A stretch of DNA of 64,000 nt from Escherichia phage EJP2: sequence record OQ411014.1. One strand, 5' to 3'. Below the pieces are notes generated by a model, which had not been told where the DNA came from, did no database searches, and saw nothing but the letters and a program-made list of their open reading frames with translations. The position numbers and the translations under genes were made by a program. How positions within the stretch are numbered: the stretch's first letter is position 1; each line of letters begins with the position of its first letter. Of the stretch, positions 6,014-26,212 are shown in pieces.

Positions 6014-6532
6014 ATGGATGATAAAAAATCAAAGATGGATATACACTTTTCATCTAAAGCTCAAACTTGGAATACTCCAAGAGATTTATGGAATAAAATA
6101 AATGCAGTATGGAAGTTCACTCTAGATGCTGCGTGTTTAGAAAATAGTGCCTTGTGCGAAAAGTACTTCACTCCTGAAGACGATTCATTAGAACAGGACT
6201 GGGGTGATAACATAGTATGGCTTAACCCACCCTATAACGACCTCAAGACTTGGCTATCGAAGGCAGTACAGGAATATAAGAAAGGCTCTACAGTTGTCAT
6301 TCTGGTCCCTTCTAGGACGGATACAAAGGCATTCCAGGACTATGCTTCTAAAGAATGTTCGTGTATTTGTTTTATTAAGGGAAGACTCAAGTTCTTTGAT
6401 CCAGCTAGACCACCTGATGCGAGGGCAGACCCAGCACCATTCCCTAGCTGTTTGATAGTACTGGATGATGATCTTACACAAGAGAAAATCGATTTTCTAA
6501 AAACTCTAGGTCAGGTAATGAAGAATGTCTAA
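6014..6532 (+). CDS. DNA N6-adenine methyltransferase (phage Dam-type)
   Basis: NPPY motif (VWLNPPYNDLKTW) typical of amino-methyltransferases; size fits small phage Dam family. Confidence 0.6.
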   Translation: MDDKKSKMDIHFSSKAQTWNTPRDLWNKINAVWKFTLDAACLENSALCEKYFTPEDDSLEQDWGDNIVWLNPPYNDLKTWLSKAVQEYKKGSTVVILVPSRTDTKAFQDYASKECSCICFIKGRLKFFDPARPPDARADPAPFPSCLIVLDDDLTQEKIDFLKTLGQVMKNV

Positions 6533-11876: not shown

Positions 11877-12566
11877 ATGCAGACATTTGATAATTCAATC
11901 AACATCAGTACTGAACTATTAAAAGTACTAAAAGTGATTTATAGTTTCAGTACTGAAGAGTTGTTGAAAGTACTACCAGAGAGTGTATCTAAACGAGAAA
12001 ACGAATATAAGTGCGTTTTTGATATACAACAAGATGTACAATTTCAAGTTCAAATTAACTACAAAGACGATTTGAATTATCGCAGTACTAATATTTCCAT
12101 TCTTGATGTGCGTCGCGGCGTAACAATGAATGGGACAATTCCATGTATCTTAGCTTTAGGTACATACGCAGCGAATAAATCAGAACCATCTATCATTTGT
12201 AACTACTCCCAAAGTAAAGAATTTATGGTTCGATATCATTCATTGACCGAAAATCCTGCTTATACAAATGTCAGTACTGATGGCAATTCACTTAGAATGA
12301 ATCGAATCAAGTACTACGAGATTGATGATATTTTTGATGAAGGTGCAGTATTCCAACATTCAATTATGCATGAGTTCGACCCTAATAGTATTCTGTTATT
12401 ACAGAAGATGGTCACTGTTGGGGATTACATCAGTACTAAATGTAATTCCAATAAAATCCTTGTCTCGGCTGATGAAGATAAGTTAGATGGTCTGTTGGAT
12501 TCACTTCTAAAGATTGATGTTGTTAGTAAATTCATTTCCTTATATGAAGGTACAGAATGGTCATAG
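11877..12566 (+). CDS. paralogous early-gene family member
   Basis: motif EGAVFQHSIMHEFDP. Confidence 0.55.
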   Translation: MQTFDNSINISTELLKVLKVIYSFSTEELLKVLPESVSKRENEYKCVFDIQQDVQFQVQINYKDDLNYRSTNISILDVRRGVTMNGTIPCILALGTYAANKSEPSIICNYSQSKEFMVRYHSLTENPAYTNVSTDGNSLRMNRIKYYEIDDIFDEGAVFQHSIMHEFDPNSILLLQKMVTVGDYISTKCNSNKILVSADEDKLDGLLDSLLKIDVVSKFISLYEGTEWS

Positions 12567-13180
12567 CCAATAAAGGTTTAGAAATCATTGAAATTGCACC
12601 GGATGAAGTTCAAATGGAAGTTGAAGTAATGTATCCGTGCAACATTGAACAGTACTGCAAACAGGGATTACAGTACTTAGAAGAAATGCAAGTACTACTT
12701 GATTCTCCTGATTGTATCGATAATTATACCAAATACACAACTGTAACCAGAACTACACCAGAATTGGAATTGATTGGTATTCGATATTGCAACACACGTC
12801 TCCCATCAATTATTACTACAGTTAAATTTACTGAAGTAATGTTGCTGGAAACATTTAGATGGCCTAAAACGTTACAAAGTCATTTCAATTCAATACGTTT
12901 TGGTGAAGATGAATACATTATCATGTGTGAAGATCCTAAGTCCTACAAATATGTAGTGATGGTCGAGCAAGATGAAGTATGCACAATTGAAGATATCAGA
13001 GACGAAAGTTCTTTATTTCAGGCTTCATTAGTTTCTGAATTAGATCCGTGTATACAGGAGTATCTCATCAAACATCACGAACTGTACTTGCGTGCAATTA
13101 GTAATGAGAACAAAGAGATTACTACTCTATGTACTACTCTGGCAGGTGGTGATTACTACGCAGAGAGGCAGTACTTATGA
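12557..13180 (+). CDS. paralogous early-gene family member
   Basis: motif ESSLFQASLVSELDP. Confidence 0.55.
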   Translation: MVIANKGLEIIEIAPDEVQMEVEVMYPCNIEQYCKQGLQYLEEMQVLLDSPDCIDNYTKYTTVTRTTPELELIGIRYCNTRLPSIITTVKFTEVMLLETFRWPKTLQSHFNSIRFGEDEYIIMCEDPKSYKYVVMVEQDEVCTIEDIRDESSLFQASLVSELDPCIQEYLIKHHELYLRAISNENKEITTLCTTLAGGDYYAERQYL

Positions 13181-13716
13181 ATGCCTTAGAACATATTGTA
13201 AAATACTTCAGTACTGCACAACCTAATGGGTATGCGTTGTTTCATGCAATGTTTCATTATGAACGAGAACCACTAGCAATTGAGCGTTATTATCAAAACG
13301 AGAAAACGCACTTCTTGATTCATGTTCGGGTCGGTTCAAAGATTGAAACTCTAAAAATGTACTATAATCACAAAGAATATCCGAAGAAAATTATAATGAT
13401 TCAATCGTCACCTACAAATAGTTTTATACATTTGATGAGTAATTATAAGACACAATTTTTAGATGATGCCAATAGTAATGTGTGTATTATGGGCGTTGAG
13501 GGAAAGGAATATAACTTCAATGCATTTGATGAATGTGCATTATTCCAGGCCAGTACTGTATGTGATATTGATGTGGATTTCATTTCAAAATCTATGTTGA
13601 CATTACAGAATATTTCGGATAGTATTAGTAGTGTTGTTACCTTACAAGGAACCAAAGGTGTAATCGATGAACTTTGTAATCTCAGGATTGATTCGATTAT
13701 GCGATTAGCTTCATAG
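13177..13716 (+). CDS. paralogous early-gene family member
   Basis: motif ECALFQASTVCDIDVD. Confidence 0.55.
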   Translation: MNALEHIVKYFSTAQPNGYALFHAMFHYEREPLAIERYYQNEKTHFLIHVRVGSKIETLKMYYNHKEYPKKIIMIQSSPTNSFIHLMSNYKTQFLDDANSNVCIMGVEGKEYNFNAFDECALFQASTVCDIDVDFISKSMLTLQNISDSISSVVTLQGTKGVIDELCNLRIDSIMRLAS

Positions 13717-13771
13717 TAATAGATTCAAAAAAATTTATAAAAGTGCAAATAATCACAAGGAGTGTGAATAT

Positions 13772-14506
13772 ATGTTAGATCGTATAAAATTTGCCCAGGA
13801 GATGGCGAATGAGCTAAACAAATCAAATTTCCAAACTGTATCACCTATTATGGCTGAGTATGCTACTGCATATGCAACAGATGGAGTTCAGTGTGGACAG
13901 GCGAATATGTTAGCGGACGTGTACAGTACTGTGCAGAGTAAGCAATTCTCTGTTAAGACGTACAAAGATAAATTCGTATCTTCATTCATGAAGGGTGAGA
14001 TTGCAGAAGATCGTGAGTTCACAGATCCTATCATTGAGCGTAGGATTTCTGGGGTGGCGAATCCGAATGCTGATCCATCGTTAGTCTTTGAGGAAGTACT
14101 GAATGATATTCGAGACAATGAACGCAGAAGTCTAAACCACTACGGTATTAATTCCACTGGAACAGTACTGTTAGGATTCAGCGAAGATGATGATTATTTT
14201 TACTTTCGTCTAACTGAATATGATTATGTGTATGATGCTCCCGCTTCAGTACAAGAGAAGACCTTCACAGAACGTAGTAAAAACTACCTAAAACATACAG
14301 GAAATCGTTGCGGAATCGAATGCTACAACACTGAAGGTGTTATGGTGTACGAATGGGTTCACCCGAACAATCAGGCTTATACACGCTGTCTGAAGAAGCG
14401 GTACGACCTACGTGATGCTGATTCTATGTATTTCAAAATCAAGAAGCAGAAGTACACCAGACCTGATGATAATGCATTGTTGGATATGGTTAGTATTCAC
14501 TTCTAA
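13772..14506 (+). CDS. hypothetical protein
   Basis: 244-aa ORF with RBS AAGGAG. Confidence 0.55.
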   Translation: MLDRIKFAQEMANELNKSNFQTVSPIMAEYATAYATDGVQCGQANMLADVYSTVQSKQFSVKTYKDKFVSSFMKGEIAEDREFTDPIIERRISGVANPNADPSLVFEEVLNDIRDNERRSLNHYGINSTGTVLLGFSEDDDYFYFRLTEYDYVYDAPASVQEKTFTERSKNYLKHTGNRCGIECYNTEGVMVYEWVHPNNQAYTRCLKKRYDLRDADSMYFKIKKQKYTRPDDNALLDMVSIHF

Positions 14507-14515
14507 ATCAATTAT

Positions 14516-14545
14516 GCAGTACTGCGATTGTAGTACTGCTTTTTT
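14516..14545 (+). terminator. intrinsic terminator with AGTACT-containing arms
   Basis: GCAGTACT...AGTACTGC stem followed by a T6 run. Confidence 0.6.
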
Positions 14546-14556
14546 CTGGAGATGCT

Positions 14557-15111
14557 ATGAATAATCTTGAGTTCGTTAAACACTTGGCTAATAAAGTTGA
14601 TACAATCGCACAGAAACATATTGACACTCAAAGTTCAATACCTATAAAATTAGCGATTCCTCATGATAATATGGAACTGTTCGATAGATTCTTTTCTGTT
14701 CGAGGCCGCCACGATAAAGATAGATATCTTTTACTCGACACTGACCGGAATGCTTTTCAGTACTCAACACCTACGTTTCCTGGAATTTTCATGAAAGTGT
14801 CTGATGGATTGTACCTTACGTACTCACCACCAGATATATCACAGACTATGATTGGATTGGATTCTAGGGTATTACTATTTCAGCCACGCAATCCAAGTGA
14901 TGTATATGATCCGTATGAATTCTTGACTGAAGAAATGCACTTCCAGGCATCTACAGTACTGGATATTCCGAGCATAGAAACTCTAAGAGAAATGCTTGAT
15001 ATTGTTGAGTTTTTGATTGAAAGTGAATTCAAATTTAGATGTTCAATGGACTACGATGATTACCAGAGTATTCAGATTGGTCGTTTTTATAATTACGCAA
15101 TGCAGGAATAA
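14557..15111 (+). CDS. paralogous early-gene family member
   Basis: motif EEMHFQASTVLDIP. Confidence 0.55.
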   Translation: MNNLEFVKHLANKVDTIAQKHIDTQSSIPIKLAIPHDNMELFDRFFSVRGRHDKDRYLLLDTDRNAFQYSTPTFPGIFMKVSDGLYLTYSPPDISQTMIGLDSRVLLFQPRNPSDVYDPYEFLTEEMHFQASTVLDIPSIETLREMLDIVEFLIESEFKFRCSMDYDDYQSIQIGRFYNYAMQE

Positions 15112-15115
15112 CCAA

Positions 15116-15727
15116 ATGAAGAATCTAGATAAATTTGAAGACCTTATCAGTACTGCAAAAGCGTTCGGGTATTATAATTTCATCCAACGCTTTGGCCTCA
15201 AAGAAGAAAGTAACCGTTTCTGTAAAGTATATCGTGGTATCTGTACTGAAGATTCGGAGTATCAGTTCTTGATTGGAACTATGCGTTCTAGTGGTGGGAT
15301 TACATACATCGTTGAAGATAATAAAACAGGTGAGTACTTGAACATGTTCGCTCTTCGGGCAGAAGGTGAATCTGAACTTACTGCGATGTTTAAAGACTGG
15401 ACACGACTATCATACAAATACGATAAGTTCAACATCTACAACTACGAAACCAAGAAGATGGAAGTTGTACCGAACATTGACATGTCTGAAGATGAACATT
15501 TTCAGTTCATGCTATTGCATGATATTCCAGATTATGATACAGTACAGTCAGTACTGAAATATCATAAAGAAGTTTCACCAATGCTCAAAGAACATAAGCT
15601 ATTCAATATCATCACGTACACGATGCCTGATTTTGATTTCACAAAGATGAAAATCAAACCTGAAGTAATTGACACGTGTATGGATTTGATACCTGAATCA
15701 TCTTTATACAAACACAAGGATATATAA
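15116..15727 (+). CDS. paralogous early-gene family member
   Basis: start set to the ATG at 15116 just after the upstream stop (track ORF begins 15017); motif EDEHFQFMLLHDIP. Confidence 0.5.
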   Translation: MKNLDKFEDLISTAKAFGYYNFIQRFGLKEESNRFCKVYRGICTEDSEYQFLIGTMRSSGGITYIVEDNKTGEYLNMFALRAEGESELTAMFKDWTRLSYKYDKFNIYNYETKKMEVVPNIDMSEDEHFQFMLLHDIPDYDTVQSVLKYHKEVSPMLKEHKLFNIITYTMPDFDFTKMKIKPEVIDTCMDLIPESSLYKHKDI

Positions 15728-16866
15728 TGACTACAATGCGTGAACTATATGACGATTTGAATGCATTAGTATCTGATGCTTTCTATCACAAAGATTTCGT
15801 TAGTAAAGGCTCTGGTACGTACCGGATTTTCTCGTACCGTCTAGCGAGTGCTGCTGACTTCGAAGAACGTAATGCCCTTGAGTCACGTGGTATTATGTTC
15901 GAGATTGATGCAGATACTAAAGAGCCAATTCGTATTGCTTCTCGGACTATGAAGAAGTTTTTCAATGCAGGGGAAACCCAAGAATTACAGTTCAAGAAGG
16001 ACGTACCATTCAGTACTATCAAGTGCGTAATGCCTAAGTTGGATGGTTCTGTTATTGCAACCTTCATGGACAATGATGGAATTATTCGTACTAAATCAAA
16101 CTCTTCGTTGGAGTCTGAGCACGCGTATTACAGTACTGAAATGATTCACGCCAATGATAAGTTACACGATGCAATCATTTGTGCTGAAGCTGCTGGTTAT
16201 ACTGTAATTATGGAATTTACTTCACCTGAGTACCGGATTATTCTTCCTTACCAGAAAGATGAACTAACTGTATTGCGTATCATTCATCGTGAAAGTGGTG
16301 AAAGCATTATGGGTTCTGACTTGAAGGAGAAGTTCCCAGTACTGTATGAGTTTTCGGTATTTGGTGATAAAGACATTCATGAATCATTCCCTGTTCGCAG
16401 TACTTTAGTACAGAGTATTGCTGCTGTTCGTGAAATGGAAGAGATTGAGGGATATGTTGTAGTACTACAAGATGGCACTACATTCAAGCTCAAGACGGAT
16501 TGGTATTGCAATTTACATTTTACCAAAGATAGTATTATCATTGATTCTCGACTATTCAAGGCAGTACTGGATGGTAGTTCAGATGATTTACGTCAATTGT
16601 TTGAAAATGATGAATATGCACTAAAAAAAGTCGAAAAAATGGAAAATTTGATTTTTTTGTGCTATAATAAGTTAGAAGAGGATGTGACTACTTTTTACGA
16701 AAAGTACAAGCACCTTGATCAAAAAACGTATGCTATGAAGGTGTTGGGTGAATTATCGAAAGATATGAACCGACAAGGACTTGCATTCAACTTGTACAAT
16801 GGTAAACCTGTTGATTACAAAGAAGTACTACTAAAGTACATGAAGAACGTGTTAGAAGGATTCTGA
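15727..16866 (+). CDS. rnlA: RNA ligase 1 (T4 RnlA-like)
   Basis: N-terminal TYRIFSY...RGIMFE...RIASR.MKKFFN and the lysine motif KLDGS match my recollection of T4 Rnl1; 379 aa. Confidence 0.85.
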   Translation: MTTMRELYDDLNALVSDAFYHKDFVSKGSGTYRIFSYRLASAADFEERNALESRGIMFEIDADTKEPIRIASRTMKKFFNAGETQELQFKKDVPFSTIKCVMPKLDGSVIATFMDNDGIIRTKSNSSLESEHAYYSTEMIHANDKLHDAIICAEAAGYTVIMEFTSPEYRIILPYQKDELTVLRIIHRESGESIMGSDLKEKFPVLYEFSVFGDKDIHESFPVRSTLVQSIAAVREMEEIEGYVVVLQDGTTFKLKTDWYCNLHFTKDSIIIDSRLFKAVLDGSSDDLRQLFENDEYALKKVEKMENLIFLCYNKLEEDVTTFYEKYKHLDQKTYAMKVLGELSKDMNRQGLAFNLYNGKPVDYKEVLLKYMKNVLEGF

Positions 16867-16895
16867 CATAGTAATAGCTGAACAGGGAGTAGTTC

Positions 16896-17135
16896 ATGGC
16901 TAACAAACCGAAGTACCAATTGAAGAAGGGTGAAGTACGTACACCGGAAGAGCAGAGAAGGATTTTAGAAGAAATCGATTCTTTACAGCATGAACGCTCC
17001 CGCAAAGGAGTTAAGAAAAGTGCTAAGAGGATTGCAAACACATTTGGAGTCTCAAGTACTGCATATAAAAAGGAACGTAAGCCCAAAAAGAAAAGAGACA
17101 GAATATACGATATAGGAAGATATGCTCGTGAATGA
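16896..17135 (+). CDS. small basic protein, possible DNA-binding
   Basis: 79 aa, highly K/R-rich. Confidence 0.5.
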   Translation: MANKPKYQLKKGEVRTPEEQRRILEEIDSLQHERSRKGVKKSAKRIANTFGVSSTAYKKERKPKKKRDRIYDIGRYARE

Positions 17136-17343
17136 TACAGTTATTCTTGAAACAGTAATGTATAAAGATAAAACTTATTATGCGGTGACTAACATATCCA
17201 GTGCTCAACGCACTAAGTACGTTCAACAACTAAAGGCAGTAGGTGATACTGTCTTTGTTATTGACAATTTGTTATTCATTGATGAAATGGGTTTATTCAA
17301 TATTAGTTTATTCGACACAGAAACAGCATTTTCAATTCGCTAA
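17122..17343 (+). CDS. hypothetical small protein
   Basis: 73-aa ORF. Confidence 0.45.
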   Translation: MLVNDTVILETVMYKDKTYYAVTNISSAQRTKYVQQLKAVGDTVFVIDNLLFIDEMGLFNISLFDTETAFSIR

Positions 17344-17360
17344 CAACTAGGAGATATATC

Positions 17361-17582
17361 ATGAAAGTTCAAATTATGCATAGTGTTGTCCAGGACATGT
17401 CTGTGGTGAAGTTTAGTACTCTAAGTGATTATTTCCGTTGTATCGAATTTATGGATACTAACGGTATACTGTGGGAACCAGTGAAGTACAGTTCCAGAAA
17501 CGATACCGCTAGTATTCGCGTTGATGAGGTAGCGTTGAATAAAATTTGTAAACGATATGGAGTTCAGAAATGCCTAAACTAG
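17361..17582 (+). CDS. hypothetical small protein
   Basis: 73-aa ORF with RBS GGAG. Confidence 0.5.
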   Translation: MKVQIMHSVVQDMSVVKFSTLSDYFRCIEFMDTNGILWEPVKYSSRNDTASIRVDEVALNKICKRYGVQKCLN

Positions 17583-18499
17583 TACTGACAGTTGGATTGC
17601 CTGGGTGCGGGAAAAGTACTTGGGCTACAGAAGAAGTAAAGAAATCCAAACGCAAAACTGTCATTCTAAATCGTGATGATATTCGTGAAACGATGTTCGG
17701 TGGTAACTGGGAATATCGTTATAGTAACGAGAACGAAAAATACGTCCAGAATACTCTCGCTTTTCAAGCCCAAGAAGCAGTGAAAAATGGCTGGGATATT
17801 ATCGTTGCAAATACTAATCTCAACCCAAAAGAACAAAACATGTGGAGTACTTTTGCAAAGGAGAATTCATATACCTTAGTACATCAGGACTTCTTCAAGG
17901 AGTTCAAGAAAGGTAAATCCTTTGTGCATGATTACTTCGCAATCAATGCTTTCGTGAAACATTGTAAAGAACGTAACCTAAAACGTTTGAAGTCTGTTCA
18001 AGAAAGTGTAATTGACCAAATGGCAACTTCGTACTATTACAGTACTGTTACGCCTCCACCAGTGATTGAAGGTGATGGTCTAAAATATTACATCGTAGAT
18101 ATTGACGGAACTCTAGCACATATGTTAGATTATCGTTCACCCTATGATGAAACAAAAGTTCATCTTGATGTACCTGATGAGTTCGTAATTTCAGTACTGC
18201 ACGCTCTTGTAAAAGACCCGTCAGTACGTATTATCCTCATGAGTGGTCGTCACGTCACCTGTAAAGAGCTAACACAAGAATGGTTAGCGAAGCATTCAGT
18301 ACCGTATCATGAGCTTCATATGCGTGCTGCGGACGATGTACGAGGGGACGATGTGGTGAAATATGAGTTGTATATGCAAGAAGTATACAACAAAAACAAA
18401 CGAGTCCAAGTTGTGTTCGATGACCGTCAAAAAGTTGTGAACACATGGCGTGAGTTGCTTGGCCTCAAAACCTTCCAGGTACAGCCTGGAAATTTCTAG
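17570..18499 (+). CDS. pseT: polynucleotide 5'-kinase / 3'-phosphatase (T4 Pnk-like)
   Basis: P-loop GLPGCGKSTWA at the N-terminus, HAD phosphatase motif YIVDIDGTLA and C-terminal FDDRQKVV; 309 aa. Confidence 0.85.
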   Translation: MPKLVLTVGLPGCGKSTWATEEVKKSKRKTVILNRDDIRETMFGGNWEYRYSNENEKYVQNTLAFQAQEAVKNGWDIIVANTNLNPKEQNMWSTFAKENSYTLVHQDFFKEFKKGKSFVHDYFAINAFVKHCKERNLKRLKSVQESVIDQMATSYYYSTVTPPPVIEGDGLKYYIVDIDGTLAHMLDYRSPYDETKVHLDVPDEFVISVLHALVKDPSVRIILMSGRHVTCKELTQEWLAKHSVPYHELHMRAADDVRGDDVVKYELYMQEVYNKNKRVQVVFDDRQKVVNTWRELLGLKTFQVQPGNF

Positions 18500-18508
18500 G
18501 AGTGATAT

Positions 18509-18895
18509 ATGCTCGTAATTCGAATCGGCAACGAAGAACGTGAAATCCGACTTGTGGAAACAATTGATAGTACTCAATATTTCGTACTCAAGAATGAAGT
18601 TAGTTCTGTTTCTCTAGTTGAAGCAGTTGACGACCTTTGCATTTCTCTGTATAGTGGTGGTATTGACACACTTGAAGAAGCAATCTGGATTGAAGCTGCA
18701 TACCTATCAGAAACATATGGCGTGTGGACATTTGATGAAGTTGATACAACTAAAGAAGCTACACGCTTGACGGAGTTCATGAACGATCTGATTGATGGTG
18801 TAGAGGAAGATGATCCTTTATATCAGCACGCACATTATACGGTTCAAGAAATCCAAGAAATAATCTCAACAAATCTAAAATATAAGGAAGAATAA
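18509..18895 (+). CDS. hypothetical protein
   Basis: 128-aa acidic ORF. Confidence 0.5.
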   Translation: MLVIRIGNEEREIRLVETIDSTQYFVLKNEVSSVSLVEAVDDLCISLYSGGIDTLEEAIWIEAAYLSETYGVWTFDEVDTTKEATRLTEFMNDLIDGVEEDDPLYQHAHYTVQEIQEIISTNLKYKEE

Positions 18896-18896
18896 T

Positions 18897-19253
18897 ATGA
18901 GCATTACAGTACTATTTGGTCTAGACAACGTTGACATTTTCGATGCAGTTGCAAAAGCACAAGACGTTGATGTTGCTGGGATGGTGGTTTCTTATGGTAA
19001 CGTCCAAGGTGAAACTATCGAGATTTATGGTGAACAAACAGTACTGAAAGTTGCTAGATTAGCAGAATTCAACGGTACTGCATTGACTGTCTATACTGAC
19101 GGTACTAAAGAGTTCATCGATGTTGCTAAGTTCATTCCTGTGTGTGAGCCTGTTGCAGCAGATAAGATTGGTGAACTAGTATTTGATCAAACTGAACTAC
19201 CATTTGCTGTAGCATTAGTTCGTGGTGTTCATCGTTTAGTTCACGTAATCTAA
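18897..19253 (+). CDS. hypothetical protein
   Basis: 118-aa ORF. Confidence 0.5.
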   Translation: MSITVLFGLDNVDIFDAVAKAQDVDVAGMVVSYGNVQGETIEIYGEQTVLKVARLAEFNGTALTVYTDGTKEFIDVAKFIPVCEPVAADKIGELVFDQTELPFAVALVRGVHRLVHVI

Positions 19254-19263
19254 TTTCAAATAC

Positions 19264-19293
19264 AGTACTGCTATTGTGGCAGTACTTTTTTTG
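19264..19293 (+). terminator. intrinsic terminator with AGTACT-containing arms
   Basis: AGTACTGC...GCAGTACT stem followed by a T7 run. Confidence 0.6.
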
Positions 19294-19301
19294 AGGTATA
19301 T

Positions 19302-19544
19302 ATGAGTAGTATTCAAAAGTTCCAAATGCTTGAAGGTACTCTAAAGAGCTTCACTGAAGTTGCTAATGATATGCGTACTGCATTACTCGGAACTAAAATT
19401 CAGTTACACGATGATACTCGTGTATATGAAGTACAAAGTATTTCATGGGATTATTCTGGTTCATTGACTATTGCAATTGAAGAATTACCGCGTGCATATT
19501 CAGTGAAGCGTGTTAGTCTAAATGAAATCTCTCGTGTTCTATAA
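19302..19544 (+). CDS. hypothetical protein
   Basis: 80-aa ORF with RBS GAGG. Confidence 0.5.
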   Translation: MSSIQKFQMLEGTLKSFTEVANDMRTALLGTKIQLHDDTRVYEVQSISWDYSGSLTIAIEELPRAYSVKRVSLNEISRVL

Positions 19545-19555
19545 AGGATAATCAA

Positions 19556-19723
19556 ATGTTTACAGCAATTCTAGGTTTTGTATTCTGGTTGGCAATGGTT
19601 GGTGCAGTAGTGTTTCAGGCACAAACACAAAATCGTAAAATCGCATTTTGGGTAGTGTGTGCACTAATTGTAACTCCAGTAATCCCAGCGAGTATACTCT
19701 ACTTCTTAGGTCGAAGGAAGTGA
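19556..19723 (+). CDS. small membrane protein (55 aa; below the ORF-track length cut-off)
   Basis: ATG at 19556 after RBS AAGGA; hydrophobic MFTAILGFVFWLAMVGAVVF...; stop TGA at 19721-19723. Confidence 0.4.
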   Translation: MFTAILGFVFWLAMVGAVVFQAQTQNRKIAFWVVCALIVTPVIPASILYFLGRRK

Positions 19724-19947
19724 CACTACTATTACTGATGTATATATGTGGATTCACTTCATCAGTACTAATATCTGAGTTTGAATATCATTTATACAAT
19801 GTTGAATGTACCAGAGTGGATTATTGTTATATAATAGTGTATTCACTCCTTGGTTGGTACGTTATGATACCTTGGATTGTCATTGACAATCTTTGGAAAT
19901 ATAAAAGAAAGGGTTAATACCCTTTATTAATTACATAAGGAATTATC

Positions 19948-20298
19948 ATGAACAATGCACAAGCCCAGTCTGCATTAGGTAGTATTGAGACGTTCATAGA
20001 GTCATTGGTTCAAATAAAACAACGTGAACTTGACCGCATAACTGAGAAAGTATCTAACTTGGAAGTACAAGTAACTCCAGAAATTATGTTAGAACTTGCG
20101 TGTGTCTTTTATCACAAAGACTATGATCTTACTGATTGTAAAGTTACTAGTGTTAAAGTACATCAAGTCTTGTACACTGAAGAAGAATGTATTGGTTTTA
20201 TCTTAGTAGTACTGGTAGAAATGCCGGACGAAACTATTGACAAATATTATTTGTGTCCAGATGATATTCATAAATTGAAGTTTATTGATGAGGAATAA
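19948..20298 (+). CDS. hypothetical protein
   Basis: 116-aa ORF with RBS AAGGA. Confidence 0.5.
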   Translation: MNNAQAQSALGSIETFIESLVQIKQRELDRITEKVSNLEVQVTPEIMLELACVFYHKDYDLTDCKVTSVKVHQVLYTEEECIGFILVVLVEMPDETIDKYYLCPDDIHKLKFIDEE

Positions 20299-20300
20299 AA

Positions 20301-20729
20301 ATGAAGCTATATTGCTTAGTGAACGTAAAATGTTGTGCAATACAAGCAGGTATTCAGGCATTACACAGTACTGCAAGAATGATGCACAAGTATCACATGA
20401 ATGGTCAAGCATGGGCTAATCTTATGATTGACACTTGGATGACTCACAACGAAACTGTAGTACTCTTACAGGGTGGTGTGCACAAAACTCTACGTGATAA
20501 AGTCAATCTCCTAAATGGACAAGAAGTTATGCCATTTGATTTCTTCACTGAAGAAGATATCAATGATGCATATACTAGTATCTCCATCCTTTGCAGTACT
20601 GAAATGGTTGAGGATATGAAACGTCTTCGTGAAGAAGAAGTTACTAAAGAAGACTTAGCACAAAAATACAGTTCGTGGTCTGCTGCTGAGATTTTGGAAT
20701 TTATGGCATTTGCGAGGACAATCTCCTAA
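20301..20729 (+). CDS. hypothetical protein
   Basis: 142-aa ORF. Confidence 0.5.
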   Translation: MKLYCLVNVKCCAIQAGIQALHSTARMMHKYHMNGQAWANLMIDTWMTHNETVVLLQGGVHKTLRDKVNLLNGQEVMPFDFFTEEDINDAYTSISILCSTEMVEDMKRLREEEVTKEDLAQKYSSWSAAEILEFMAFARTIS

Positions 20730-21955
20730 TGAAATTACCTACAGAGTGGTATGTTGCTCGAAGCATGAACAGTACTGAAGAGATTTTAGGCTTTTTGGTT
20801 GATGCATCGAGTAAAACATCAAAAACGTTTGAAAGTAAGAAAGAAAAGGCTGATTACTGGGCGAGAAACCGTACTAGTAATGGTAAGCTAGAAGGGATTT
20901 ATGTTAGTAATGAACCCCAAGAAGGTTTTCAGATTGTAACCAACGTTGGTCGTTATCGTACCAAGAACGTTCTATGGCGTGTATGGCATCCAGAAGGTTT
21001 TGAGTTCGAAATCACTTCTGACAACTTCTGTGATTTACTCCAGACTAACACTATCATTGATGGTGAAATTCAGGGTAAATTATTCTTGACTTCAGATAAG
21101 AAGTTAGTGAATGAGAAAACCAAACTCTTTGCAGATCGTATTGCTAAAGAAGAAAAAGCCAATAATATCAATGCTTCAGTAAAAGAATTGAAAATTGGTC
21201 AAGGCATTCGTATTGAAACTGTATCCAAAAGTACATCACCTGATTTTATCTATATGGGTAAAGTGCACTGTATCAGTACTCATGCTAATTACAAATACCG
21301 TATCAAAGATAAGAGTTCCTTAGTACACGTACTGAAACGTGTAATTGATGGTGCGTACTTCTTGACTGCAAAGATTACTCACGACTTTATTCGTGTTGAT
21401 CAGTACGATGTAAAAATCACACCAGCAGAAGTGTGCAAAGAAGTGAATGCATATTTCAAAGATGTATTTGACTATAACAATGCAGCTATGACACATCTAT
21501 GTCCGGTGTATACCTATGTTACTCCGTTGTGTGTGAGTCCAAAGCCATTCAAGAAAGATGACATGCACATTGAATTCACACAAGTTCCTGGTAATAGTAT
21601 TACCCGTTTCGATGGTTCTACACAGATTCGTTATGAACAAGACGGTGAACAGTACTGGGTATTTGGATATCTACGTCCATCCAAAAACACTTCATACGAT
21701 TCACACGTTTATAATATTGTGTTGACAACTAGTACTGGTGCAACTAAAATCTTCATGCGTAAATGCACAGTGAACGAACATGGTGTACTCAACCCCAATG
21801 CTGAATTGGGTAACATGTATAACTTCACGTACTGCACCGAATTTTATTCACCATGCAGTCGGCATATGCCAACATCTGAACTCGATGGCAAGAAGTGTTT
21901 AGTTCGGATTGATATTCCAGAATTTCTTGAAGTTGGACATTACACACTAAAATAA
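20729..21955 (+). CDS. hypothetical protein
   Basis: 408-aa ORF; ATGA overlap with the upstream gene. Confidence 0.55.
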   Translation: MKLPTEWYVARSMNSTEEILGFLVDASSKTSKTFESKKEKADYWARNRTSNGKLEGIYVSNEPQEGFQIVTNVGRYRTKNVLWRVWHPEGFEFEITSDNFCDLLQTNTIIDGEIQGKLFLTSDKKLVNEKTKLFADRIAKEEKANNINASVKELKIGQGIRIETVSKSTSPDFIYMGKVHCISTHANYKYRIKDKSSLVHVLKRVIDGAYFLTAKITHDFIRVDQYDVKITPAEVCKEVNAYFKDVFDYNNAAMTHLCPVYTYVTPLCVSPKPFKKDDMHIEFTQVPGNSITRFDGSTQIRYEQDGEQYWVFGYLRPSKNTSYDSHVYNIVLTTSTGATKIFMRKCTVNEHGVLNPNAELGNMYNFTYCTEFYSPCSRHMPTSELDGKKCLVRIDIPEFLEVGHYTLK

Positions 21956-21965
21956 GGATATTACT

Positions 21966-23381
21966 ATGAGCGTACTTTCTATTTTGACTGAACTAAAAGA
22001 CAATGCATCTATTCTGGTCAAAAAAGACATTCTCAATAAAAACAAGGACGATGCAGTACTGCAACGTGTTCTCAAACTAGCTTTAGACCCAGGAATTGTA
22101 AGTGGTTATAAGAAGCTACCGAATCCCTTCGTTAGTGAAACTAAGTACACACTCAACGAAGCACTAAATCAGCTTGATGATATCTACACTCGTAAGTACA
22201 CTGGTCATGCTGGACGTGACCACATTGCACAAATCCTAGGTTCAGTCACTGAAGATGACCGTGAAGTTATCCGTCGAGTACTGACTAAGGACTTAGAGTG
22301 TGGTGCTAGTGATAAGATTGTGAACGATGTATTTGGTAAAGGTTTTGTCAAAGATGAACCGTATATGCGTTGTTCATTGATTGATCATAAAACTGCAAAA
22401 AACATCAACTTCGATGGTTATGGTTATGCTGTCTCTGAAGTAAAAATGGACGGCACTTACCTGAACCACGTAGTCATCAACAATGCACTAACATCCTCAT
22501 CCAGAAATGGTAAACTATATGATTTTCTTGGTTGTCGTGACTTAGAAATGAGTGGGGTTGCTGGAATCATTCAGAAAAATGATCCACGTTTCAGTTCTGG
22601 TGTAGTTTTCATGGGAGAAGGTTTAGTACTAGACACTGATGGCACTATTCTTCCACGAACAACTGGTAATGGGATCATCCAAAAAGCGGGTAAAGATTCC
22701 ATAACATCGTTCGAAGCTATGCGGGTAGTCTTTGTATTATGGGACGTTGTTCCATATGATGCATTCTGTAATGGTTTTTGGGATGTGAAACGCAAAGAGC
22801 GTCGTGAAATACTTGAAAGTGCAATCAACGAATTCGATAGTGAATTTGTACGTATGGTTGAGTACCGTAAAGTAAAAAATCTAAAAGAAGCATTTGATTA
22901 TAACACTGAACTCATGAACAAGGGTGAAGAAGGTTCAGTACTGAAATGTGAAGATGGTGTTTGGAAATCACACACTTCTCCTAAGCAATTGAAAATGAAA
23001 CTGAAAATGCAAATTGATTTACGCATTGTAGGATTCAATGAAGGGGATAAGAAACGTAAAGGCTGTTTGGGTTCTTTACAACTTGAAAGTGATTGTGGTA
23101 CATTGAAAGTGAATGTAGGTACTGGTATCAAAGAGAAAGATGCCGAATGGACATTCAAAAGTATCTGGGAAAAACGTTTTGAACTATTGAATAAGATTGT
23201 CACTGTTGAGGCAAATGAAATCGTAGTTGATAAACGTACTGGAGAACCATCACTATTTTTGCCAGTGTTTGTTGAATTTAGATTTGACAAGGACACATGT
23301 GACACGTATACTCGTATCTTAGAAATTCGAGAAAGTGCTGTTGAGGTATTTGCAAACAGTATTGTTAGTTCTTTATTGTAA
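21966..23381 (+). CDS. ATP-dependent DNA ligase
   Basis: adenylation motif I KMDG (SEVKMDGTY); 471 aa, similar in size to T4 gp30. Confidence 0.7.
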   Translation: MSVLSILTELKDNASILVKKDILNKNKDDAVLQRVLKLALDPGIVSGYKKLPNPFVSETKYTLNEALNQLDDIYTRKYTGHAGRDHIAQILGSVTEDDREVIRRVLTKDLECGASDKIVNDVFGKGFVKDEPYMRCSLIDHKTAKNINFDGYGYAVSEVKMDGTYLNHVVINNALTSSSRNGKLYDFLGCRDLEMSGVAGIIQKNDPRFSSGVVFMGEGLVLDTDGTILPRTTGNGIIQKAGKDSITSFEAMRVVFVLWDVVPYDAFCNGFWDVKRKERREILESAINEFDSEFVRMVEYRKVKNLKEAFDYNTELMNKGEEGSVLKCEDGVWKSHTSPKQLKMKLKMQIDLRIVGFNEGDKKRKGCLGSLQLESDCGTLKVNVGTGIKEKDAEWTFKSIWEKRFELLNKIVTVEANEIVVDKRTGEPSLFLPVFVEFRFDKDTCDTYTRILEIRESAVEVFANSIVSSLL

Positions 23382-23941: not shown

Positions 23942-24634
23942 ATGTTTCATAACTCTATCAAAGCCAATGCATACGAAGAACCAACCAACATGACTATTCC
24001 AATCGTTGTTGAACAGACTCATAATGGTGAGCGTTCTTATGATTTACCATCTCGTTTGATGAACTCTCGTATCATCATGGTTGATACTGATTTCAACGAC
24101 CAGATGGCATATGTAATCAAAATGCAGTTGCTGTGGCTTGATAGTCAAAGTGCAGACCCAATCACTATGTACATCAACTCCCCTGGTGGTTCAGTACATG
24201 CTGGTTTAGGTATTGCTGATGTAGTTGCGAACCTTCGCTCTCCAGTACGCACTATCGTTATGGGTATGGCTGCATCGATGGGTTGTTACATGCAAAGTAC
24301 TATGGGTACTCCTGGTCTGCGTCTAGCAGGTAAACGTGCACAAATCATGGCACACCAAGTATCTTCTGGTACACAAGGTCTGATTCTAGACCAAGAGATT
24401 TCTCTGAATCATAGTAAGCGTTTGAACAAACTCTTGACTGAAGAGATTGCTGAAGCAGTAGGTATGCCGATTGAACAATTCCTTATTGACTGTAACCGCG
24501 ATTTGTGGTTAAATGCTGAAGAAGCATTGAACTACGGCACTAAAGGTTTCATCGATGGTATCTATCTGGGTAAACAAAACGAACAAGGCCAACTACTTGT
24601 CCAACGTCGTGGTGGTGTTGAGGAATGGGTGTAA
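23942..24634 (+). CDS. clpP: ClpP-family serine protease
   Basis: INSPGGSVHAG and catalytic-serine motif GMAASMG. Confidence 0.8.
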   Translation: MFHNSIKANAYEEPTNMTIPIVVEQTHNGERSYDLPSRLMNSRIIMVDTDFNDQMAYVIKMQLLWLDSQSADPITMYINSPGGSVHAGLGIADVVANLRSPVRTIVMGMAASMGCYMQSTMGTPGLRLAGKRAQIMAHQVSSGTQGLILDQEISLNHSKRLNKLLTEEIAEAVGMPIEQFLIDCNRDLWLNAEEALNYGTKGFIDGIYLGKQNEQGQLLVQRRGGVEEWV

Positions 24635-25420: not shown

Positions 25421-26212
25421 ATGAAATTTATGATTATGTCCGACACACACGGTTCCAACGATTTCATTCCAGAGGGTGATTACAGCGATGTAGTACTGAT
25501 TATTCCTGGTGACTTCGATGAAGCTAAACGACCACGTTTCCGTACTAAGATTGAATCTCTGTGTAAGCAGTTTAAGGAAGTAGTACTGGTTCCTGGCAAT
25601 CATGAGTACTACGGTTCTAATATTCACAAAGTACATAAGATTTTGAAAGAAATGAATTTTGAGATTCCCAATTTCTCATTCCTGCAAAACGACTACATTT
25701 ACATTGGTGATGTATTGATTGTCGGTGCTACACTGTGGACTGATTACGACAGAAGTAATGCCCTAGTGAAGTTCGATGCAAAGATGAAGATGAATGATTA
25801 CAAACACATTCGTCATGGTACTGAAGCTGAACCGTGGAAGACTAAACTCACAGTAGAAGATGTAGAGTACATGCATCACATTTCGAAGAAATATATCAAG
25901 ATGCTGATTGACACAGAGCGTGAACTCGTACATAATGATATCAAGGTTGTGGTAGTAACACATCACGCACCAAGTTATCAGAGTGTTTCTCCACGTTACA
26001 AGAATGATTCACTGAATGGTTGTTACTGTTCTGATATGGATCAGTACGTAGCTGATACAAAAGCGGACTTCTGGATTCATGGACACGTACATGATAACTT
26101 CGATTATTATATCGATAAGACTCGTGTTCTGTGCAACCCAAGAGGCTATGCGTCATCTATTGGAGTTCATGAAAATAAAAACTTCAATGCAAACTATATT
26201 TTTGAGGTATAA
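25421..26212 (+). CDS. calcineurin-like metallophosphoesterase
   Basis: motifs SDTHGS, GDFDE, GNHEYY, THHAP and GHVHDN. Confidence 0.7.
   Translation: MKFMIMSDTHGSNDFIPEGDYSDVVLIIPGDFDEAKRPRFRTKIESLCKQFKEVVLVPGNHEYYGSNIHKVHKILKEMNFEIPNFSFLQNDYIYIGDVLIVGATLWTDYDRSNALVKFDAKMKMNDYKHIRHGTEAEPWKTKLTVEDVEYMHHISKKYIKMLIDTERELVHNDIKVVVVTHHAPSYQSVSPRYKNDSLNGCYCSDMDQYVADTKADFWIHGHVHDNFDYYIDKTRVLCNPRGYASSIGVHENKNFNANYIFEV

Follow-up and report, generated by a model that had tools for sequence, protein, structure and literature searches.

An Rnl1-Pnkp pair separated by three small genes in Escherichia phage EJP2, a probable RaK2-like form of the T4 tRNA repair pathway

Phages classically counter host anticodon nucleases by combining RNA ligase 1 (Rnl1) with a polynucleotide 5'-kinase/3'-phosphatase (Pnkp). 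In phage T4, the two enzymes are the products of rnlA (gp63) and pseT, and the genes that lie between these two (alc, the spanin genes pseT.3 and pseT.2, and pseT.1) serve functions that have nothing to do with RNA repair. The pair is already known from RaK2-like phages as well: the RaK2 paper of 2013 attributes RNA repair to gp464 and gp470, and the occurrence of Rnl1 and PNK-HAD in jumbo phages was surveyed in Iyer 2021. Escherichia phage EJP2 is a RaK2-like phage (PMC10213699). The window analyzed here is a stretch of 64,000 nucleotides from this phage (OQ411014.1), in which a preliminary description had recognized a T4-type repair pair and had proposed the three small open reading frames between the enzymes as accessory factors. 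Our analysis indicates that the locus is very probably a RaK2-like version of the T4 tRNA repair pathway, with small genes that most likely do not belong together as an accessory set.

The two repair enzymes

The ligase (15727 to 16866, + strand, 379 amino acids) is assigned to the T4 Rnl1/gp63 family on the basis of matches to Pfam RNA_lig_T4_1 (E=1e-18), T4_Rnl1_C (PF20819; E=1.5e-17, residues 267-366), and phrog_562 (E=1e-97), and of an alignment over residues 4-376 with the T4 Rnl1 structure (PDB 2c5u; E=6e-58), with 35% identity to T4. The lysine nucleophile of motif I (KxDG) is present as K104 within KLDGS, which aligns with K99 in KEDGS of T4. Alongside K104, the conserved residues are R54, K77, F79, G107, E163, E241, G242, K254, and K256, and the positions corresponding to T4 R54, K75, F77, G102, E159, E227, G228, K240, and K242, which cover motifs III, IV, and V and the ATP contacts of the N-terminal subdomain, are all kept in EJP2 Rnl1 and in four relatives. 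R54 and K75 are essential in T4 Rnl1 (PMC6379707). The all-helical C-terminal domain that is specific to Rnl1 is also present, as seen from the T4_Rnl1_C match and from the T4 alignment extending to residue 376, and in T4 this domain confers specificity for the tRNA anticodon loop (PMC6379707). A difference from T4 is found at the position of K119, where EJP2 has N125 and relatives have N or H; the neighboring equivalent of T4 K117 is kept (K123). Lys119 is reportedly essential in the T4 enzyme. As the change is clade-wide, loss of the K119 equivalent is probably tolerated in the Rnl1 of these phages.

Similarly, the kinase-phosphatase (17570 to 18499, + strand, 309 amino acids) falls within the T4 Pnkp/PseT family, with matches to Pfam AAA_33 (E=1.6e-19), HAD_PNKP (E=7e-41), and phrog_505 (E=2e-91) and a full-length alignment with the T4 Pnkp structure (PDB 1ltq; E=3e-30; 34% identity to T4). 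The residues listed as essential for the T4 kinase are Lys15, Ser16, Asp35, Arg38, Asp85, and Arg126, and a corresponding set is given for the phosphatase (PMC2831316). In EJP2, the P-loop GxxGxGKS is kept as GLPGCGKST (K15 and S16), as are D36, R39, and R139, the last of these lying within RNLKR at the position of T4 R126 in RNSKR. All six T4 phosphatase residues (Asp165 and Asp167 of the DxDxT motif, Arg176, Arg213, Asp254, and Asp278) have their counterparts in D177 and D179 (DIDGT), R189, R227, D260, and D285, and a functional phosphatase domain is therefore predicted. The remaining kinase position differs: T4 Asp85 corresponds to Asn81 (codon AAT) in EJP2, within VANTNLNP versus ISDTNLNP of T4. 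Asp is found at this position in 19 other Pnkp orthologues and Asn in EJP2 alone. Because Asp85 is essential by alanine substitution in T4, where it has a structural hydrogen-bonding role (PMC2831316), it is conceivable that Asn81 lowers kinase activity in the EJP2 isolate. This change, specific to the isolate, affects an essential kinase residue in a phage that is a therapeutic candidate.

Recognition of the two proteins as a T4-type RNA repair pair is therefore borne out, since each can be aligned over its whole length with the T4 enzyme of known structure, and since the ligase lysine nucleophile and the DxDGT phosphatase site are preserved. The two findings that would have counted against it, a missing catalytic lysine motif in the ligase and a defective phosphatase domain in the kinase, were not obtained. 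Homology identifies the enzymes as Rnl1 and Pnkp, and their mechanism and substrate in EJP2 are proposed by analogy with T4. As such, the locus very probably represents the RaK2-like jumbo-phage form of the T4 tRNA healing-and-sealing pathway, in which host anticodon nucleases would leave a 2',3'-cyclic phosphate and a 5'-OH, Pnkp would convert these into a 3'-OH and a 5'-phosphate, and the anticodon loop would then be resealed by Rnl1 through its tRNA-specific C-terminal domain.

A compact block with clade-restricted small genes

The five open reading frames are co-directional on the + strand, with exactly the boundaries given in the preliminary description. Between the enzymes lie the genes for a basic protein (16896 to 17135, + strand, 79 amino acids; phrog_15306), an acidic protein referred to here as mid (17122 to 17343, + strand, 73 amino acids; phrog_26893), and a protein referred to as third (17361 to 17582, + strand, 73 amino acids; phrog_14730, EJP02_098), which overlaps the start of Pnkp by 13 nt. 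Each of the five is preceded by a Shine-Dalgarno-like motif, and the distances between them range from -14 to +29 nt. The cassette is contained in a nine-gene block bounded by terminator-like hairpins on the + strand, upstream at 14516 to 14539 and downstream at 19264 to 19286, each with a 10-bp stem and a T-run after it. From 14540 to 19263 on the + strand, no strong terminator-like site was found between genes; the only two matches in this interval have weak 6- to 7-bp stems and lie inside the Rnl1 coding sequence. Rnl1, Pnkp, and the three small genes thus lie in one tightly packed block that is probably co-transcribed.

The three small open reading frames are real, clade-restricted genes, since each falls within an established PHROG of unknown function, can be traced through orthologues to other phages, and is under purifying selection relative to synonymous change. 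An RNA element in place of genes was considered and rejected, with no Rfam match and with constraint at the protein level, and what looked like a family of paralogues upstream of Rnl1 proved to be a short shared motif without significant similarity. A literature search for expression or virion proteomics data on the small genes in related phages returned nothing.

All of the 19 loci that were examined first have the intact cassette, as do those later loci for which enough sequence was available; these later loci were retrieved by anchoring on a 244-amino-acid upstream protein and mostly came from the same clade. It forms a five-gene island that is conserved between variable flanks in 17 to 19 of the 19 loci, and the full cassette also occurs in the distant lineages L025 and L028. 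The basic protein is its most conserved member, exceeding both Rnl1 and Pnkp and indicating very strong constraint. The label of highly basic holds, with 25 K+R against 11 D+E and a pI of 10.4. By contrast, mid is poorly conserved, with 25 to 46% identity among orthologues, and has no match in Pfam.

Possible roles of the small genes

We lean, on balance, toward the explanation that, as in T4, unrelated early genes have simply been inherited side by side, and that no small open reading frame is tied to RNA repair. As the T4 interval holds unrelated genes, a position between ligase and kinase is weak evidence for shared function, and loci of the 121Q and RaK2 types likewise carry extra unrelated small genes between third and Pnkp. 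The basic gene is particularly informative here. It was found in every locus, including in a minimal 57-amino-acid form in RaK2, and its position between the gene for the 244-amino-acid landmark protein and the DNA ligase region is constant in all lineages, whatever their enzyme content. It is kept in the lineages L021 and L026, where Rnl1 is missing, and in one lineage (L022-24, L069, and L070) without either enzyme within +/-10 kb, as judged on contigs of 40 to 55 kb, so that Rnl1 or Pnkp could be encoded in other parts of the genomes concerned. Among the unannotated neighbors in the Rnl1-less loci, neither Pfam nor local HMMs found a ligase or kinase in hidden or degenerate form. Because it persists where Rnl1, or both enzymes nearby, are missing, the basic protein probably does not serve repair as a dedicated accessory. 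It could instead belong to the core genes of the phage clade and act independently of RNA repair, and its predicted build, with one amphipathic helix, K/R-rich tails, and a C-terminal RIYxxxRxxRE helix, would most readily suit a small helical protein that binds nucleic acid or a partner. The basic protein had no significant structural match, and a PDB sequence search with its family profile gave nothing significant. Very strongly conserved, restricted to the clade, and kept in position even where the repair enzymes are missing, it is a candidate for a core factor of these 350-kb phages, which are little understood.

What is not readily explained by synteny is the behavior of third. This gene occurs only where Rnl1 does and is the sole small open reading frame to track the ligase; the two are not adjacent, and yet both are absent from L021 and L026 whereas the relative L025 (70% anchor identity) has the full cassette, a pattern unexpected from one random deletion. 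As its presence tracks Rnl1, third could conceivably be a ligase-linked factor, although the co-variation amounts to one or two independent loss events only, and we regard this phyletic link as a weak lead. The fold of third appears ACT-like (beta-beta-alpha-beta-beta-alpha), with 6 to 21% identity, which is not significant, to ACT and ACT-like regulatory domains such as those of aspartokinase and CASTOR1/2; a PDB sequence search with the family profile likewise found nothing significant. Because this fold is common, the resemblance may be topological only. Unlike the ACT regulators, which bind small molecules, third is a stand-alone protein of 73 amino acids that is found only in this RaK2-like phage clade, with no known ligand. 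By comparison, mid is missing from 121Q-type, RaK2-type, and L058 loci and present in the Rnl1-less L021 and L026, and is regarded as dispensable filler.

It could also be speculated that the five genes form an extended RNA repair or counter-defense module, in which tRNA, broken RNA ends, or an anticodon nuclease would be bound by the basic protein, and third would regulate or partner Rnl1. Conservation of the island between variable flanks, tight packing without an internal terminator, the stronger constraint on the basic protein than on the enzymes, the co-occurrence of third and Rnl1, and the full cassette in distant lineages would all fit such a module. Nevertheless, we consider it unlikely, given the persistence of the basic gene in loci without one or both enzymes, the absence of mid from three sub-clades, the few loss events behind the co-variation of third, and the unrelated functions carried in the equivalent T4 interval. 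The small proteins, moreover, do not resemble Dmd, Stp, Arn, or AsiA in sequence and are rejected as their homologues; the family HMMs scored -1.4 to 1.6 bits against Dmd and Stp, and the PADLOC defense models gave no match. The suggestion that they might be nuclease inhibitors is accordingly not upheld. The broader idea of accessory factors is left unproven and partly contradicted: the conserved island, the packing, and the co-occurrence of third with Rnl1 agree with it, and retention of the basic gene without the enzymes does not. We hold it to be quite improbable that third is an unrecognized Rnl1 partner lost with the ligase while the basic protein is a cofactor binding tRNA or RNA ends, which would make the cassette an extended repair or counter-defense module specific to RaK2-like jumbo phages. 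Equally doubtful is the idea that the basic protein regulates transcription of the early region as a helix-turn-helix DNA-binding protein, comparable in role to Alc, which occupies the same post-rnlA position in T4. The helix-turn-helix-like helices of the basic protein are deleted in relatives, and no conserved core was found that significantly resembles helix-turn-helix DNA-binding proteins in fold or profile.

The reading that we prefer is therefore a tRNA repair pair within conserved gene order, with three small genes that most likely are not a single accessory set. The conserved basic protein, the link between third and Rnl1, and Asn81 are modest points that open no long-standing question, and the locus is otherwise ordinary.

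Comparison with T4 and with other RaK2-like phages

The comparison with T4 places the two loci side by side at the level of both enzymes and layout. Both enzymes of EJP2 are full-length homologues of those of T4 with the same domain architecture, in that Rnl1 has the tRNA-specific C-terminal domain and the kinase is fused to a DxDxT phosphatase; the residue differences are those at the positions of T4 Rnl1 K119, which is Asn or His in the clade, and Pnkp Asp85, which is Asn in EJP2. Gene order and orientation are also shared, with the ligase upstream, the kinase downstream, and several small genes between. The comparison of gene order that the preliminary description had called for thus confirms the layout and at the same time weakens the accessory idea, as the intervening genes are unrelated: four in T4 (alc, pseT.3, pseT.2, and pseT.1) versus basic, mid, and third in EJP2. 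Homology of the small open reading frames to Alc, PseT.3, PseT.2, or PseT.1 was rejected, with a best E of 1.4 by BLASTP (word size 2), and HMMs of mid and third found nothing among the T4 open reading frames.

Orthologous loci are found in RaK2, where the interval runs from gp464 (RNA ligase) to gp470 (polynucleotide kinase), and in 121Q, PBECO4, GAP32, CBB, Munch, and Hallingskeid. These share with EJP2 Rnl1, a gene of the basic family, a gene of the third family, and Pnkp. Variation is detectable around this common set: RaK2-type loci have the 57-amino-acid basic protein, lack mid, and carry three other small genes ahead of Pnkp, and 121Q-type loci carry two extra genes between third and Pnkp. 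Unlike both of these types, EJP2 presents the compact five-gene form of the locus.

The RNA repair pair and its cassette

The preliminary description placed a T4-type RNA repair pair, RNA ligase 1 (Rnl1) and polynucleotide kinase-phosphatase (Pnkp), around three small genes. The five ORFs are tightly packed on the + strand, and the coordinates given for them prove exact. Rnl1 (15727-16866, 379 aa) is followed by the basic ORF (16896-17135, 79 aa), the mid ORF (17122-17343, 73 aa), which overlaps the basic ORF by 14 nt, the third ORF (17361-17582, 73 aa), whose product is identical (100%) to EJP02_098 of phage EJP2, and Pnkp (17570-18499, 309 aa), which overlaps the third ORF by 13 nt. A Shine-Dalgarno-like motif lies 5' of each of the five. 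Two strong terminator-like hairpins on the + strand (14516-14539 and 19264-19286), each with a 10-bp stem and a T-run, have related stems (GCAGTACT/AGTACTGC) and bracket a nine-gene block at 14557-19253. As no strong intergenic terminator-like site was found between them, co-transcription of this block is plausible; the two weak terminator matches of 6-7 bp in this interval both fall within the Rnl1 coding sequence. No tRNA gene or Rfam family match was detected in the whole 64-kb window, and the six tRNAs reported for EJP2 lie elsewhere in its genome.

The assignment of both enzymes is well founded in domain, structural, and catalytic-residue matches. Rnl1 matches the Pfam families RNA_lig_T4_1 and T4_Rnl1_C and phrog_562, and T4 Rnl1 crystal structures align to residues 4-376 (E=6e-58); Pnkp matches AAA_33, HAD_PNKP, and phrog_505 and is aligned over its full length by T4 Pnkp (E=3e-30). 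Column-by-column comparison with T4 reveals that Rnl1 keeps the catalytic lysine K104 (T4 K99) together with R54, K77, F79, G107, E163, E241, G242, K254, and K256. Similarly, Pnkp keeps K15, S16, D36, and R39 in the kinase and D177 and D179 (DIDGT), R189, R227, D260, and D285 in the phosphatase, all six of the phosphatase residues essential in T4. With the ligase lysine motif and the phosphatase residues both in place, the enzyme calls stand.

Two positions depart from T4. The position of T4 Rnl1 K119, a residue we take to be important, is Asn or His throughout the clade. An apparent loss of Pnkp Arg126 in the MAFFT alignment was ruled out, the residue being R139 in a conserved RNxxR motif. 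Asp85, one of six kinase residues given as essential in T4 Pnkp by alanine substitution (PMC2831316), is replaced by Asn81 (codon AAT, 17810-17812), and 19 other orthologues from the fetched loci have Asp here. The difference may reflect a hypomorphic mutation specific to this isolate, a tolerated substitution, or an error in sequencing.

The repair pair is already known for the RaK2-like clade and for the published EJP2 genome. The 2013 RaK2 paper names "two RNA repair proteins," the RNA ligase gp464 and the polynucleotide kinase gp470, Iyer et al. (2021) surveyed Rnl1 and PNK-HAD across jumbo phages, and the 2023 publication of EJP2 (OQ411014, RaK2-like, 37% G+C, with which the window agrees) annotates an RNA ligase (PMC10213699). 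The small genes between the enzymes are discussed in neither the RaK2 paper of 2013 nor Iyer et al. (2021).

Conservation of the locus

The cassette is a conserved island amid variable flanks. All 19 related loci first fetched keep the gene order Rnl1, basic, (mid), third, Pnkp, as do later loci having enough sequence; each of the five genes is present in 17-19 of the 19, compared with 4-7 for the two genes just upstream and none, within the fetched flanks, for the genes downstream. For the seven ORFs 3' of Pnkp (18509-21955), no homologue was detected in any of these 19 loci within 3.5 kb of the cassette, and this hypervariable stretch separates the cassette from a conserved ATP-dependent DNA ligase gene (21966-23381). 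Several consecutive ORFs in 11877-15727, of approximately 180-230 aa, also vary among related phages. All that these ORFs have in common is a short motif, [DE]E..[LH]FQAS.V.[DE][IL][DP], with no significant pairwise similarity among them, and they may be a very divergent paralogue array.

Within the cassette, mid is poorly conserved (24-46% identity) and has no counterpart in the 121Q type, the RaK2 type, or locus L058, which have other small genes inserted ahead of Pnkp. Two or three extra small acidic ORFs lie between third and Pnkp in 121Q (L003, 4215-4790) and in a RaK2-type locus (L029, 3710-4477); as those of Asteriusvirus and RaK2-type phages are unrelated to each other and to window genes, this interval evidently accepts gene insertions.

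Most informative about the basic protein is the gene content of distant lineages that carry a homologue of it, which is more varied. Rnl1, mid, third, and Pnkp are all present in P0022 (L025) and P0028 (L028), and Rnl1 in P0027 (L027), a short contig that does not reach the other three. Two lineages, P0026 (L026/L066) and P0029 (L021), have mid and Pnkp and lack Rnl1 and third. In P0024 (L022-24, L069/70), none of the four genes was found within ±10 kb of the basic gene, which has a 244-aa landmark gene on one side and, on the other, a 392-aa ORF and then DNA ligase. By landmark-protein identity, P0024 is the outgroup (35-41%), and L026 is closest to the full-cassette locus L025 (70%). The basic gene thus persists at this position more than any other element, and the enzymes around it vary in presence from lineage to lineage.

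The landmark itself (13772-14506, phrog_16105, no Pfam domain) recurs at 35-79% identity in all lineages examined, including those without Rnl1 and Pnkp, and is a stable upstream marker of the locus. Genes for a Dam-like protein (6014-6532), the DNA ligase, a ClpP-like protease (23942-24634), and a Metallophos phosphoesterase (25421-26212) are syntenic with the P0024 and P0026 lineages and mark out a conserved early or replication region that contains the RNA repair cassette.

The small proteins as candidate accessory factors

The small ORFs were initially put forward as candidates for accessory factors in an Rnl1/Pnkp counter-defence module, a role that is unproven and for which the three genes differ. 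The basic protein deserves its label (25 K+R against 11 D+E, pI 10.4) and is more conserved than either enzyme, with 61-92% identity in related loci (median 75%) against 46-60% for the enzymes and a pN relative to Erwinia phage Hallingskeid of 0.037 against 0.27-0.29. Its retention in contigs where the enzymes are absent (±10 kb) contradicts the proposal for this protein and argues against a dedicated accessory role. The family is very narrow: a search of 1.84 billion proteins yields 13 representatives at E<=0.001, and all phage records carrying it are RaK2-like. In the AF2 model (mean pLDDT 73.5), residues 17-37 form a long helix and residues 43-50 and 54-61 two short ones. The segment suspected from the sequence to be a helix-turn-helix is either variable or missing in distant members, and the 57-aa RaK2 form lacks it yet still matches the family (E=1.7e-14). 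The conserved core consists of a basic N-terminal tail, TPEE with one amphipathic helix (I23, D28, S35, and G38 invariant), a K/R-rich linker, and a C-terminal RIYxxxRxxRE.

In the phage collection searched, from which EJP2 seems to be missing, the nearest record is Hallingskeid, with 84% nucleotide identity across just 9% of a 4.5-kb query. Within 15000-19500, megablast-level similarity to any phage record is confined to 16766-17180 (84%, Hallingskeid), which takes in the end of Rnl1, the whole basic ORF, and the first part of mid. Synonymous divergence is low in the basic ORF (pS 0.42 versus 0.68-0.84 in neighbours), which suggests local recombination or nucleotide-level constraint.

An accessory role is not supported for mid. 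For third, it is weakly suggested by presence that tracks Rnl1: third occurs in every Rnl1-bearing locus and is absent from three Rnl1-less lineages. Basic and mid separate it from Rnl1, yet its presence matches, and the genes inserted in the 121Q and RaK2 types lie on its Pnkp side. This co-occurrence pattern is a genuine lead, reflecting only one or two independent events. The 77 database homologues of third are all stand-alone (64-96 aa), and those with a source name, a minority, all belong to the RaK2-like clade. AF2 predicts a beta-beta-alpha-beta-beta-alpha sandwich (mean pLDDT 81), and a BFVD model of the RaK2 orthologue, built independently, superposes on it (TM 0.92). As this fold is widespread, it does not point to a function.

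Proposed mechanism and comparison with T4

In the favoured mechanism, by analogy with T4, Pnkp would heal nuclease-cleaved tRNA and Rnl1 would seal it. The basic protein is most likely a core protein of this clade that acts independently of them, with nucleic acid or another protein as its probable binding partner, and third is possibly linked to the ligase. The small ORFs show no similarity to T4 alc, pseT.3, pseT.2, or pseT.1 or to Dmd, Stp, Arn, or AsiA, and no match to PADLOC models. The layout of ligase, small genes, and kinase is itself common to T4, in which rnlA, alc, pseT.3, pseT.2, pseT.1, and pseT are all co-directional. The T4 intervening genes have unrelated roles, alc being annotated as a host transcription inhibitor and pseT.3/pseT.2 as Rz-like spanins. 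Comparison with the T4 gene order therefore does not favor the proposed module: given these unrelated genes and the lack of similarity to them, a location between the enzymes is only weak support for a common function.
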